The notes beneath the pieces were generated by a model. The model saw only the letters and a program-made list of their open reading frames with translations. It was not told the origin of the DNA and searched no databases. A DNA stretch of 32,303 nt from Aquificaceae bacterium (GTDB lineage Bacteria > Aquificota > Aquificia > Aquificales > Aquificaceae). Of the stretch, positions 29,281 to 32,303 are shown piece by piece (position 1 is the first letter of the stretch; each line of letters begins with the position of its first letter). Where the stretch lies: positions 1 through 32,303 of the forward strand of contig JBEPZX010000014.1 in the NCBI GenBank assembly GCA_041640635.1, given 5' to 3'. The position numbers and the translations under genes are program-made.

Positions 29281-29724
29281 ATGCGAGCTGTATTACAGAG
29301 GGTTAAAAACTCAAGTGTTGTAGTAGAAGGAAAGCAAGTTGGTTATATAGAGCACGGTCTATGTATACTCCTAGGTATAAAAGTTGGTGATACAGAAAGG
29401 GAAGTGGATAAGCTGATAAACAAGATTATAAACTTAAGAATATTCGAGGATGACTCGGGAAAGTTTAGTAAATCTCTTTTGGATGTGGGAGGGTCTGTTC
29501 TTGTTGTGTCACAATTTACTTTGTATGCAAACACGCGAAAAGGTAGAAGACCAAGTTTTGAACTTGCAGAAAAGCCTGCGATAGCAGAGAGCTTATATAA
29601 CTACTTTGTAAAAAGGATTTCCCAGTACGTCAACACGCAAACAGGAATATTTGGCGCTACGATGGATGTTTACATCCTCAATTACGGACCTGTAACTATA
29701 ATACTCGACTCAGAAGAACTTTAA
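29281..29724 (+). CDS. dtd: D-aminoacyl-tRNA deacylase
   Basis: MRAVLQRV, LRIFED, SQFTL, GRRPSF, N.GPVT. Confidence 0.98.
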   Translation: MRAVLQRVKNSSVVVEGKQVGYIEHGLCILLGIKVGDTEREVDKLINKIINLRIFEDDSGKFSKSLLDVGGSVLVVSQFTLYANTRKGRRPSFELAEKPAIAESLYNYFVKRISQYVNTQTGIFGATMDVYILNYGPVTIILDSEEL

Positions 29725-30335
29725 TGTTGAAGGTTGTTCTAACTGGCAATATAGGATGTGGCAAATCTACAATTGCGAATATGTTTAAGGAATTATCTTG
29801 TTATGTGTTTGATGCGGACAAAATAATAAAAGGATTCTATGATGAAAAAGGCAGTGTTTACAAGGAAGTTGTAAATAGATTTGGGGGAAGCATACTGGAT
29901 AGCCAGGGCAATATAGACAGGAAAAAACTTGCCAATATTGTATTCAAAAACAAAAAAGACTTAGAGTTTTTAGAAAGCGTTACACACAAAGCTCTGTATG
30001 ACAGGTTGGAAGAAATATTTAAGACGCTTCCAAAAGATTCTATTGTGATAGTCGAGGCTTCTTTGGTTATAGAAAAAGGCACTTATAAAAACTACGACAA
30101 AACAATCGTTGTTTACGCACCTTACGAAATATGCAAAAAAAGAGCTATAGAGAAAGGCTTTACCTCAGAAGATTTCGAAATAAGATGGAATAAACAAATG
30201 CCAATAGAGGAAAAAGTAAAATATGCTGATTACGTAATAGACAACTCTAATGGAGTGGACAAAACAAGAGAACAAGTAGTTGTCGTTTACCAAAAGCTAA
30301 GAGAAGAACTAAGCAAAAGAAGCTCGCAAACTTAA
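29724..30335 (+). CDS. coaE: dephospho-CoA kinase
   Basis: LTGNIGCGKST, DADK, IDRKKLA..VF, ADYVIDNS. Confidence 0.97.
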   Translation: MLKVVLTGNIGCGKSTIANMFKELSCYVFDADKIIKGFYDEKGSVYKEVVNRFGGSILDSQGNIDRKKLANIVFKNKKDLEFLESVTHKALYDRLEEIFKTLPKDSIVIVEASLVIEKGTYKNYDKTIVVYAPYEICKKRAIEKGFTSEDFEIRWNKQMPIEEKVKYADYVIDNSNGVDKTREQVVVVYQKLREELSKRSSQT

Positions 30336-30359
30336 GGTTAAAACTGACAGGATATAAAG
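30331..30359 (+). repeat. highly degenerate CRISPR-repeat-like sequence (R0)
   Basis: ...TTAAAACTGACAGGATATAAAG; last 11 nt identical to R2, last 10 nt identical to R1. Confidence 0.45.
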
Positions 30360-30584
30360 GCTTTTGTGAAAACTGCATCGAACGGGGGAAATGGTAGATA
30401 TGCTTCTGAGCCTTGATACATAACGCTCCGATGGTGATTTTTTTTAAAATCTGAAAAACCTTAATGGAAGTTCGATGCAAAATACATTCATACGAAACGT
30501 ATTGACTTTTTCTGTAATTAGGTTGTTACAATAAAGACAACAAAAGAATTTTGAGCCCCAAGGCGCCCTCCGTGACATGTTTGG
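30360..30584 (+). promoter_or_regulatory. putative CRISPR leader
   Basis: Non-coding stretch abutting R1; 10-bp inverted repeat TGCATCGAAC (30374)/GTTCGATGCA (30470); TTGACT (30502) and extended -10 TGnTACAAT (30524-30532). Confidence 0.7.
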
Positions 30585-30748
30585 GTTTTATCTGAACTAT
30601 GTGGGATATAAAGATTACAATTGACAATTAAACAAAAAGGTATATATTAATTTACCTAAATTAAACTATGTAGGATATAAAGAAATAAAGATTTAACTTT
30701 TTTCTTCCGTAGACCACACGTTTTATCTGAACTGTGTGGGATATGAAG
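30585..30748 (+). CRISPR. orphan CRISPR mini-array: R1 30585-30613, S1 40 nt, degenerate R2 30654-30682, S2 37 nt, R3 30720-30748
   Basis: R1 GTTTTATCTGAACTATGTGGGATATAAAG; R3 differs at 2 of 29 positions; R2 matches 21 of 29 (18 of the last 19); periods 69 and 66 nt; GTTT...AAAG ends typical of Cas6-processed class 1 repeats. Confidence 0.85.
30621..30648 (+). promoter_or_regulatory. sigma70-type promoter inside spacer 1
   Basis: TTGACA (30621-30626)-N16-TATATT (30643-30648). Confidence 0.65.
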
Positions 30749-30774
30749 TAATTTTTGCAAGGAGGTAAGTAATT

Positions 30775-31293
30775 ATGGCTAAGGAACAGGGGAAGAAAAA
30801 CCAGGGGGACAAAACCAAGAAAGAGTTATACACCCTAACCGAGCTATCTGAGCTTTTAGGTATCAAAGAGGGGGTGTTAAAGGAGTGGTGTGAGAGGGGA
30901 GAGATTGCATGTGTGAGGGAGGTAGGACCTAATGGTGTAGTGTATGCGGTAAGAGAAGAGGATGTGGAAAGGGTTGTGAAGAAAGCTAAGGAGTGGATAG
31001 CTGATAGAAAAGCTACTAGCTCCCTGCTAAGAGTTGCTGGCGTTTTTACAGGAATTTTGGCTTGGCTGTTTTTTGTAGGAGGTATTTTCTCTGAGGGTGG
31101 TACCCTTTGGGCTATGACTGGTATTTTCTTCCTCTCTTTTGTGGGACTAATGGTCGCTTCTAATATTATCTCCCCTCAAAAGGAATATAGAAGAAGGAAA
31201 AGGGATGATTGGTGGGAAGATGACAGGAGAAATGATTATTTGGATAATCCAAAGGACTTTGCTAGCCCGCTCTACAGAAGTCCATTTGATTAA
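30775..31293 (+). CDS. excisionase/MerR-like HTH domain fused to two TM helices and a charged tail
   Basis: LYTLTELSELLGIKEGVLKEWCERGEI...YAVREEDVE; two hydrophobic segments; SD AAGGAGGT at 30759-30766. Confidence 0.75.
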   Translation: MAKEQGKKNQGDKTKKELYTLTELSELLGIKEGVLKEWCERGEIACVREVGPNGVVYAVREEDVERVVKKAKEWIADRKATSSLLRVAGVFTGILAWLFFVGGIFSEGGTLWAMTGIFFLSFVGLMVASNIISPQKEYRRRKRDDWWEDDRRNDYLDNPKDFASPLYRSPFD

Positions 31294-31392
31294 AACTTTA
31301 GTGGAAAAGGAGAAAGAAAAGGGGGAAGGAAAAGTAGAAGGGAGGATGAATGGTGGAGTAATCCAATGCACCCAGCTTATCCGCATGATTAA
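31294..31392 (+). pseudogene. in-frame second version of the C-terminus of the preceding gene
   Basis: After the TAA the same frame reads NFSGKGERKGGRKSRREDEWWSNPMHPAYPHD*, paralleling RRRKRDDWW...DNP...SPFD*. Confidence 0.6.
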
Positions 31393-31425
31393 AATTAACT
31401 AAATTTCTCTCCACAATTGGGGGAG

Positions 31426-31468
31426 TAAAGAAGTAGACCTGATCGATCCTGCTTCTATTACTTCTTTA
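31426..31468. terminator. inverted repeat between convergent genes
   Basis: TAAAGAAGTA (31426-31435) / TACTTCTTTA (31459-31468). Confidence 0.5.
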
Positions 31469-31472
31469 TTAT

Positions 31473-32303
31473 TTATGGACCTGCAGGGGTTCCGTCCTTT
31501 GTTATCGTAGGGGAGTCATTAGGTCCGAGTTTCTGTTTTATCTCTTGTAGAGCTTGTCCAGTGCGGTTAATAAATTCCCCTACATCTTCAAGCCTTCTGA
31601 TGAAGACGCTGTCTTTTGGATTATCTAACGCTGTGCTTCTTAATTTTTCTATTTTGGGTTTGTATTTATTGTACAGATCGTTGTATTCTGCTTTAATTTT
31701 ATCTATCTGGGCTTGTACATCTGCTAAATCTACCTTCTCTTTATTTATCTTGTCCATAATTTTGATCGCTTCTGAATACATAAGCTCTAATTGTTTTATG
31801 TCTTCCTTTTCCATTTGTTTTTCGATTTCAGCTTGTGTTCCGGCAACCTTTTGTTGAGTTTGTGCTGTCTTTTCTTCTACCTTCTTACCCAAAAAGCCTG
31901 CGTCCCTTGCGGCGTCTTCAAAATATGTTGTGAGATTTTCACGATTGGTGCTTTCTGCCGCTATTTTTTGAGCTACTTCATCCTTTATACCAAAACCTTT
32001 GAGATCCTGAGCCATCTGCTCCTTGCTTTTAGTCCCAATAGCTAAGTTATTCAACACTGCTATAGCTGCTACTACCGCTTGTTCTTTCGAAAGGTTGTAG
32101 TCCCTCATATAACGATTAGCCAGATTGTCCACCATCTTAGGCACTAAATCAACACTTATCGTATCCGCTTTGTTATACGTTTCTATGGCTTTTTCTATGT
32201 GTGATGCACTTTCTTGGTCACTTATGCTGTGGGCAAGATTTCTTACAAACTGCTGACTATCCTGCCTGCTTAAACTTTCCTCAATAAGTTTCTTTATCTC
32301 TCC
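31473..32303 (-). CDS. C-terminal part of a large coiled-coil protein, TraG (F-type conjugation)-like; 5' end outside window
   Basis: Frame stays open to the window edge (GEIKKLIEESLSRQDSQQFVRNLAHSISDQESASHIEKA...ISVDLVPKMVDNL); helical, S/Q/A/K-rich; family assignment by resemblance only. Confidence 0.45.
   Translation of the reverse strand, partial: GEIKKLIEESLSRQDSQQFVRNLAHSISDQESASHIEKAIETYNKADTISVDLVPKMVDNLANRYMRDYNLSKEQAVVAAIAVLNNLAIGTKSKEQMAQDLKGFGIKDEVAQKIAAESTNRENLTTYFEDAARDAGFLGKKVEEKTAQTQQKVAGTQAEIEKQMEKEDIKQLELMYSEAIKIMDKINKEKVDLADVQAQIDKIKAEYNDLYNKYKPKIEKLRSTALDNPKDSVFIRRLEDVGEFINRTGQALQEIKQKLGPNDSPTITKDGTPAGP

Follow-up and report, generated by a model that had tools for sequence, protein, structure and literature searches.

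Does a short CRISPR array whose first spacer reads like a promoter, and whose next repeat is altered around the predicted start of transcription, encode an independent guide RNA, or does it serve some other purpose? Positions 30585-30748 of an Aquificaceae contig raise this question. The contig (C14) belongs to a genome of 1.43 Mb in 52 contigs with about 37% G+C (G000), and it makes up the whole of the window, that is, the 32.3-kb stretch of DNA (32,303 nucleotides) that we analysed. A first-pass annotation, made from the sequence alone, had read the unit from the second to the third repeat (R2-S2-R3) as an independently transcribed guide that borrows host Cas6/Cascade and only mimics ordinary array spacing.

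The array, its leader and its neighbours

A repeat search of the window found a CRISPR array of three 29-nt direct repeats with two unique spacers (40 and 37 nt) and start-to-start distances between repeats of 69 and 66 nt. The array and the features around it are as follows.

29724..30335, plus strand: coaE (dephospho-CoA kinase; Pfam CoaE, E=1.1e-43), the last housekeeping gene before the array
30461..30584, plus strand: CRISPR leader, with the conserved distal motif TTAATGGAAGTTCGATGCAAAATAC at 30461-30485
30585..30613, plus strand: repeat R1, the reference copy, GTTTTATCTGAACTATGTGGGATATAAAG, identical to the repeats at the end of contig C7
30614..30653, plus strand: spacer S1, 40 nt, holding a -35 element TTGACA (30621-30626) and a -10 element TATATT (30643-30648)
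30647..30664, no strand: perfect palindrome (8+2+8), TTAATTTA-CC-TAAATTAA, formed by the end of S1 together with the changed first part of R2
30654..30682, plus strand: repeat R2 (R2' for the altered copy), 72% identical to R1, with the 8-nt handle ATATAAAG at 30675-30682
30683..30719, plus strand: spacer S2, 37 nt
30720..30748, plus strand: repeat R3, 93% identical to R1, with two mismatches (A15G and A26G)
30759..30765, plus strand: strong ribosome-binding site AAGGAGG, read directly, 9 nt before the ATG
30775..31293, plus strand: HTH_17 gene, 172 aa, with an N-terminal HTH_17 domain (excisionase/MerR-type; Pfam E=1.9e-7)

The Rfam family CRISPR-DR43 matched R1 and R3 above the gathering score and did not detect R2, even at E<=1. 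Arrays of near-identical repeats occurred in 7 of the 41 related genomes searched, the present genome included. In the relative G034, the genes cas6-cas8b1-cas7-cas5b-cas3-cas4-cas1b-cas2 are followed by an array of this repeat family in the same orientation, and G028 shares this layout. Because it is the 3' end that has decayed in the terminal repeats of C7 and of the relatives, it is reasonable to read the repeat on the plus strand with an 8-nt handle; this handle length is that of type I-B processing in the available text of PMC3479195. The first 8 nt of S2 (AAATAAAG) are a near-copy of the handle, and the sequence beginning at the handle position 30675 is AUAUAAAG.

The array at 30585-30748 is genuine and chromosomal, and belongs to a type I-B repeat family. 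The only public run that contains the stretch is a DNA run labelled as a hot-springs metagenome (X1), which is probably the source sample. A 227-nt Logan contig from this run spans 30586-30812 with no differences, so the sequence of the array unit is seen in reads, and the array appears to be fixed in the population. Elsewhere in the genome, copies of the repeat were found at the end of contig C7, where two perfect repeats are followed by a terminal copy decayed at its 3' end and the contig breaks off inside the array, and as a solitary copy on contig C12 (104-132), of which the first 23 nt are intact. A candidate remnant of an older fourth repeat at 30342-30359 (GGATATAAAG) was rejected, as its 10-mer is present 32 times in the genome, and the repeat fragments on contigs C27 and C1 were chance matches inside coding sequence.

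The distal motif of the leader matched the leaders of the type I-B arrays in G028, G034 and G040 at 21 of 25 positions. It was present in seven of the eight leaders compared, with an offset from the first repeat that was equal within 4 nt, and it occurs once in the present genome; its shuffle P value of 0.021 leaves the position out of account. The claim that the array only mimics ordinary spacing is therefore contradicted by a leader that is homologous to type I-B leaders at the same offset, and by the housekeeping flank, the array being placed between coaE and a gene of chromosomal appearance. By eye, a candidate leader promoter can be read as TTGACT (30502-30507), a 19-nt gap and TGT-TACAAT ending at 30532; a gap of this length falls outside the range of our promoter scan, which covered gaps of 16-18 nt.

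Upstream of the array, 30 kb of sequence carry flagellar genes, tgt, tRNA-Val, dtd and coaE. The downstream side holds the HTH_17 gene and ORFans for 1.5 kb, up to the contig end at 32303. One of these ORFs (31473-32303, minus strand) could be assigned to no family in Pfam, NCBIfam or PHROG, and a search of 1.84 billion representatives gave it no relative. A search for contig-end overlaps that would extend C14 found none. The coaE gene has 83% DNA identity to that of a genome of the same genus (G001), the contig of which stops just past the coaE terminator. In X1, a loose end of G001-type sequence runs directly into the leader motif at 30466; this joins the G001-type coaE to the leader, so that the sister population also has coaE and then this leader. 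A synteny test for insertion after coaE was uninformative, since the genes around coaE are ordered differently in each of the other genera compared. Among the X1 Logan pieces, none bridged the leader, R1 and S1, and the contigs break inside R1 (30225-30597 and 30586-30812); the adjacency of leader, R1 and S1 thus comes from the assembled contig alone.

A promoter-like spacer and an altered repeat

The promoter scan found in S1 the sequence TTGACA, a 16-nt gap and TATATT at 30621-30648, a score of 11/12, which confirmed the first-pass description of a 40-nt spacer with a perfect TTGACA and a TATATT 16 nt later. Both elements lie inside the spacer and are directed down the array. None of the 174 spacers from four related genomes reached 10/12 on the sense strand: 164 had no qualifying site, eight scored 8/12 and the best two 9/12. 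When S1 itself was shuffled 200,000 times (mononucleotide shuffles), a score of at least 11/12 was reached with P=0.0016. The G+C content of S1 is 15% by direct count; the 174 spacers average 32% (sd 8), the lowest value among them being 15.4%.

In the whole genome (1.43 Mb, both strands), 69 sites scored at least 11/12. Non-coding DNA, which is the 7.6% outside ORFs of at least 100 aa, holds 41 of them, and 25 are both non-coding and no more than 200 nt upstream of the start of an ORF on the same strand. This scarcity and non-coding bias suggest that near-consensus sigma-70 sites are meaningful in this organism. The S1 site is among the best of them in the genome, and it is beyond chance. Start sites usually lie 6-9 nt past the -10 element, and the spacing to the -10 element here predicts a start at about 30654-30657.

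The S1 site is 126 nt upstream of the start codon of the HTH_17 ORF. Within the scanned region 30200-31000, there was no promoter-like site downstream of 30648 (with gaps of 16-18 nt allowed) and no terminator-like site, and only 26 nt separate the end of R3 (30748) from the ATG, which leaves no space for another promoter. From this short gap and the lack of a terminator after the array, it follows that the HTH_17 gene is probably transcribed from within or through the array. As nothing terminates in between, the leader promoter alone could also drive the gene.

R2 differs from R1 at eight positions, seven of which are among the first 10 nt. Direct comparison thus agreed with the first-pass annotation, according to which R2 is degenerate over its first 10 nt (3/10 matching) and keeps its 3' part with the handle (18 of the last 19 nt). 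It agreed also in that the decay is in the middle of the array, with two mismatches in R3 and eight in R2. The single change in the 3' part of R2 (G19A) is also present in repeats of G001 and of another related genome, G010. Such decay of a middle repeat is unusual. Only 3 of the 189 repeats in the arrays of the relatives had five or more mismatches, and all three were terminal copies decayed at the 3' end. According to the available text of a survey covering 701 type I-B arrays (PMC12839519), internal repeats carry 3.2 mutations per 1000 nt and terminal repeats 51; R2 has 8 in 29 nt.

The 13-nt block GTTTTATCTGAAC, which is gone from R2, is the most conserved and nearly invariant part of the repeat across genera, and the handle region varies between genera. 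The clustering of seven of the eight R2 changes in 10 of the 29 positions, with the register kept, has a probability of about 0.003 by our own binomial estimate. The changed bases are exactly accounted for by the perfect palindrome at 30647-30664, the arms of which extend to 13 nt (30642-30669) with 85% complementarity and the centre of which is at the predicted start. When the canonical repeat was substituted for R2, the best arm was 5 nt. An 8-nt arm arose in shuffles with P of about 0.05, which is marginal for such AT-rich DNA. A palindrome placed across the -10 element and the predicted start may be an operator. Folds of single repeats were weak and no better than those of shuffles. The possibility that S1 and R2' are the remnant of a second leader, resembling the leader ends of G028 and G034, was rejected: the local alignment score of 21 was matched by 60% of shuffles and by 76% of AT-rich genomic 51-mers.

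The gene behind the array, cas genes and spacer targets

The HTH_17 protein has, by eye, two hydrophobic stretches after the HTH domain, and its matches to PHROG excisionase families were weak. Members of its gene family were found in 4 of the 148 genomes of the order: two copies in the present genome, one pseudogene in G001 and two weak matches. A search of 5.8 billion proteins returned only the protein itself, and the viral, metagenome and genome contig collections contained no relatives.

The second copy, on C12, has an identity of 32% across the whole MAFFT alignment and of 40% within the matched stretch. Its start codon is about 140 nt past the solitary repeat, and argF follows directly after the gene. 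Downstream of the solitary repeat, this paralogue has its own, weaker promoter-like site (9/12), so that the linkage of repeat and gene needs no transcription through repeats. In X1, a contig from a related and more abundant population also joins the repeat to a homologue of the HTH_17 gene, with joints from 30616 to 30713 and from 30745 to 30818; together with the C12 copy, this indicates that the arrangement of a gene behind a repeat recurs. At the first of these joints, S1-R2-S2 had no alignment at 85% identity or more, and thus the two populations apparently do not share the spacer with the promoter. The conservation across strains that the first-pass annotation had proposed as a check therefore seems not to extend to this sister population.

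The same annotation had suggested comparing the repeat with other arrays and cas loci in the genome; the other copies were those on C7 and C12, and no cas locus came to light. The families Cas1, Cas6_C and RAMP had no match in this assembly, which is 98% complete by marker genes, and none of the cas ORFs from the loci of three relatives matched it in tblastn searches (the 3 of 26 ORFs that did match lie outside the cas genes). In X1, many different repeat-spacer-repeat units occur at depths of 20-78, compared with about 65 for this genome. A cas locus may therefore exist and be unbinned, and with so many such units in the source metagenome, Cascade probably exists in the community.

The best matches of S1 and S2 in their own genome were 16-17 nt long, of low complexity and off the seed. 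S2 had no target with a PAM and a consecutive seed match in the genome or in the neighbourhood, the cas promoters being absent from the assembly; seed-type matches near the locus were at background level, with 689 genome-wide. Five exact 20-mers from S1 and S2 found no real protospacer in IMG/VR, where six matches to the low-complexity 5' 20-mer of S2 extended over only 21-26 of 37 nt. A split S1 pattern had no match in the JGI metagenomes, nor had a split S2 pattern in the species-representative genomes. These scans relied on exact matches of 20-22 nt and would miss diverged protospacers.

Positions 17-26 of S2 (30699-30708) can base-pair with 30791-30800, a stretch within codons 6-9 of the HTH_17 gene, with the paired core TTTTTCTTCC in S2 against GGAAGAAAAA in the gene. 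A 10-nt complement this near had P=0.006 by S2 shuffles and P=0.017 by random genome windows. Of 200 shuffles of the predicted transcript 30655-30800, 199 had a poorer fold than the transcript itself (z=-2.5), mainly because of this pairing. We regard the pairing of S2 with the codons as a lead only.

Explanations and known systems

We tentatively favour the explanation that, in a genuine array, the S1 promoter mainly drives the HTH_17/membrane-protein gene, either alone or with the leader promoter. S1 would be a working sigma-70 promoter, and transcription would run from about 30655 through the R2 remnant, S2 and R3 into the gene, with R2'-S2-R3 as the 5' untranslated region of the HTH_17 mRNA. 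The 5' end of R2 would have been overwritten, giving with the end of S1 the 18-bp palindrome across the -10 element and the start; the palindrome would sit where operators usually do, and would possibly be bound by the HTH protein itself. Cas6, if present in the cell, would cut at R3 and leave a crRNA-like by-product. In favour of this explanation, besides the score of the S1 promoter, the 26-nt gap before the gene, the leader homology, the housekeeping flank and the palindrome, we count the C12 paralogue and the X1 homologue behind a repeat, the coaE-leader junction in X1 and a precedent in Clostridium thermocellum. Against it, we count that the leader promoter is sufficient, that the palindrome has a P value of about 0.05, that S1 is apparently not shared with the sister population, that the C12 paralogue has its own promoter-like site, and that the join of leader, R1 and S1 is known from the assembly alone.

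The precedent is spacer 103 of CRISPR locus 3, a type I-B locus, which Richter et al. (2012, PMC3479195) described as an internal promoter. According to the available text, the start was mapped by RNA-seq to spacer position 29, and 26 of the 28 nt upstream are A or T; the authors also remarked on a changed repeat tag close by, and their speculations included a fusion of arrays and remnants of a leader. The two cases share a type I-B-family array, an extremely AT-rich spacer that acts, or here would act, as a promoter, and a start at or near the end of the spacer. In C. thermocellum, as described there, the promoter lies in the middle of an array with more than 100 spacers and boosts the downstream crRNAs, whereas the array studied here has two spacers and a predicted start. 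Here, unlike the case described in that text, the repeat after the promoter is without its 5' block, and the first complete downstream product is a protein-coding gene.

The strongest competitor, although on balance we consider it unlikely, is that the promoter arose by chance or was captured in a decaying orphan array, S1 being an old spacer, perhaps from the promoter region of a mobile element. R2 would then be merely damaged, no function would have been selected, and the HTH_17 gene would be expressed by read-through from the leader. Such an origin agrees with the lack of cas genes in the assembly, with S1-R2-S2 apparently not being common to the related population, and with an array that is fixed and assembled through, unlike the contig-breaking array on C7. 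Very AT-rich spacers also exist in relatives (minimum 15.4% G+C), and cryptic promoters are a known by-product of AT-rich spacers, as the available text of PMC10883916 describes. However, a score of 11/12 is rare for the composition of S1 (P=0.0016), with 0 of 174 real spacers coming near it; the R2 changes are clustered (P of about 0.003) and give rise to the palindrome where transcription is predicted to start; and no S1 protospacer was found by exact 20-22 nt matches. The guide model of the first-pass annotation, in which R2'-S2-R3 would be a CreA/CreR-like or crlRNA-like unit taken up by the host's type I-B Cascade for repression or targeting, we consider improbable. Part of it stood: the promoter is beyond chance, lies directly upstream and points into R2-S2-R3, R2' keeps the handle and R3 has hardly changed. 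The layout is the psiR-psiS-psiR layout of CreA/CreR (10.1101/2023.03.10.532045, 10.1101/2023.03.03.530964, as far as their available text goes), the repeat family is type I-B in the relatives, and Cascade is probably available in the community. The borrowing of host Cas6/Cascade did not fare as well, since no cas gene was found in the 98%-complete assembly, the unit is neither in nor beside a cas locus, and S2 has no target with a PAM and a consecutive seed match, the nearby seed-type matches being at background. In addition, R2' has lost the most conserved block of the repeat family, and a start near 30655 would place about 20 extra nt ahead of the handle; these two features make maturation into a guide doubtful.

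An assembly artefact, in which the leader of the C7 array was mis-joined through the 29-nt repeat to an S1-R2'-S2-R3-HTH trailer, seems quite unlikely. The X1 Logan contigs break inside R1, nothing independent links the leader to S1, and the assembly has one leader for three repeat-carrying loci. The core finding would nevertheless be unaffected, because a single error-free piece carries S1, R2', S2 and R3 together with the beginning of the gene. Typically, modern assemblers work with words of more than 29 nt, and a join would then need real reads. We consider it very unlikely, and the least probable of the explanations, that a block extending from the HTH_17 gene is mobile-element cargo which carries a promoter-driven mini-array or decoy and recombined through the repeat to the leader and R1. 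The excisionase-type fold of HTH_17 and its weak PHROG excisionase matches would fit such cargo, as would the neighbouring ORF (31473-32303, minus strand) without relatives among 1.84 billion and the contig end 1.5 kb downstream. The available text of PMC10651486 and 10.1101/2024.10.29.618823 documents Racr and mini-arrays of viruses. However, the sequence up to the contig end at 32303 shows no integrase gene and none for replication or structural proteins, and the depth of 30744-31787 in X1 is chromosome-like. The C12 paralogue is a lone gene between the solitary repeat and argF, and so not part of an element; relatives of the HTH_17 gene are absent from the viral, metagenome and genome collections; and S1 with R2' did not significantly resemble any other sequence.

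Hardly more probable than such cargo is a form of Cas-sensing control, in which the array remnant would regulate a lineage-specific, membrane-anchored HTH regulator. The mRNA from the S1 promoter would carry a crRNA-like leader (R2'-S2-R3), S2 would pair with codons 6-9, and a Cas6 cut at R3 would free the gene of this inhibitory pairing. Expression of the regulator would then report that the CRISPR machinery is present and free, and possible binding sites of the protein would be the palindrome at the start site of its own gene or the repeats themselves. Such control would explain why both paralogues and the sister homologue are directly behind CRISPR repeats, and why the C12 repeat has kept 23 of 23 nt despite protein identities of 32-40%.

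Other known systems resemble the locus in part, as far as the available texts describe them. CreA/CreR and the regulatory mini-arrays of Shmakov et al. also have a promoter, a degenerate repeat that keeps the handle, a spacer and a better repeat, and the same type I-B repeat family (10.1101/2023.03.10.532045, 10.1101/2023.03.03.530964). In these descriptions, the units lie in or beside cas operons, and the spacer matches a nearby promoter, for CreA/CreR that of a cas or toxin gene, with a PAM and about 11-15 consecutive nt, whereas no cas locus or such target was found here and the unit is part of a three-repeat array with a canonical leader. Racr and the phage crRNA-like RNAs are likewise repeat-derived, with their own promoter and outside the cas locus (PMC10651486, 10.1101/2024.10.29.618823), and a solitary partial repeat also exists in this genome (C12). 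Those described are on phages, prophages and plasmids; here, only weak excisionase-type matches were found before the contig end. The arrays of Sulfolobales are similar in that AT-rich spacers make promoters and transcription of the array is linked with a DNA-binding protein, the cryptic spacer promoters being suppressed by Cbp1/Cren7 (PMC10883916). Their promoters are archaeal (TATA/BRE) and their arrays very long in that account, in contrast to the near-consensus bacterial -35/-10 pair here; the HTH protein is unrelated, and its binding to the array is at most putative.

For annotation, the locus is a caution that a layout of promoter, half repeat, spacer and repeat is not sufficient evidence for a CreR-like guide. 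For type I-B arrays, promoters carried by a spacer are known from the available description of C. thermocellum. The occurrence of a family with an HTH_17 domain and membrane segments behind repeats, at two loci and in the sister population, hints at an unrecognised array-associated factor. If our preferred explanation is true, a spacer has come to serve as promoter for the protein-coding gene beside the array, and the next repeat has been remodelled around the start. Spacers are usually seen as passive memory; in this lineage, array DNA would then have been turned to ordinary gene regulation.

Sequences in and around the window array

Spacer S2 of the array (30683-30719) begins with 8 nt, AAATAAAG (30683-30690), that are a near-copy of the handle of the preceding repeat, ATATAAAG. 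Further along the spacer, a CU-rich stretch (30699-30708) has its complement in codons 6-9 of the HTH_17/membrane gene behind the array; it is also complementary to purine-rich sites elsewhere, such as 17 nt at positions 8260-8276 of contig C16 of the same genome. Two further features were recorded in the window.

30377-30450, directly after coaE: long hairpin (CATCG...CGATG) with a T-run behind it, read by eye
31473-32303, minus strand: open-ended ORF of at least 276 amino acid residues, helical and Lys/Glu-rich by eye

The hairpin with its T-run looks like the coaE terminator; it was not called by the terminator scan, and it is kept in the same-genus genome G001. The ORF fell into none of the Pfam, NCBIfam, or PHROG families, and no relative was found among 1.84 billion representative proteins.

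A solitary repeat on contig C12 and a repeat-like sequence on C45

Two other contigs of the genome carry a partial repeat or a repeat-like sequence.

C12, 104-132 and 271-981 (locus L006): solitary partial repeat and a paralogue of the HTH_17/membrane gene
C45, 800-828 (locus L007): repeat-like sequence (24/29)

In the C12 repeat, the 23 nt at the 5' end are exactly those of the array repeat; a different sequence stands in place of the 3' end. The paralogue, whose protein has a long Ser/Asp/Trp-rich tail, lies about 140 nt downstream of this repeat, and argF follows 19 nt after the paralogue. Between the repeat and the paralogue is a promoter-like site (9/12), which is overlapped by a 13-nt inverted repeat.

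The repeat-like sequence on C45, a contig of 2.9 kb with a low G+C content (32%), directly follows an RNase HII-like fragment. Also encoded on this contig are a helicase fragment and a protein resembling the large subunit of exonuclease VII. The contig may belong to a mobile or defence island.

cas genes and the second array

The assembly, which is 98% complete, contains three loci with repeats of the type I-B family. No cas genes were detected in it by searches for the Cas1, Cas6, and RAMP families or by tblastn with the ORFs of the type I-B loci of three relatives. In the type I-B operon of the related genome G034, a gene for a Doc (death-on-curing) family toxin is located between cas4 and cas1 (L037, 8650-9039).

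C7, 75633-75797 (end of locus L005): trailer end of a second array

The repeat of this array is identical to that of the window array. Contig C7 ends within the array, and the leader on the window contig is the sole leader in the assembly. In X1, a public DNA run labelled as a hot-springs metagenome, we found many distinct repeat-spacer-repeat units at depths of 20-78; these numerous differing units indicate that a long, variable array is present in the population.
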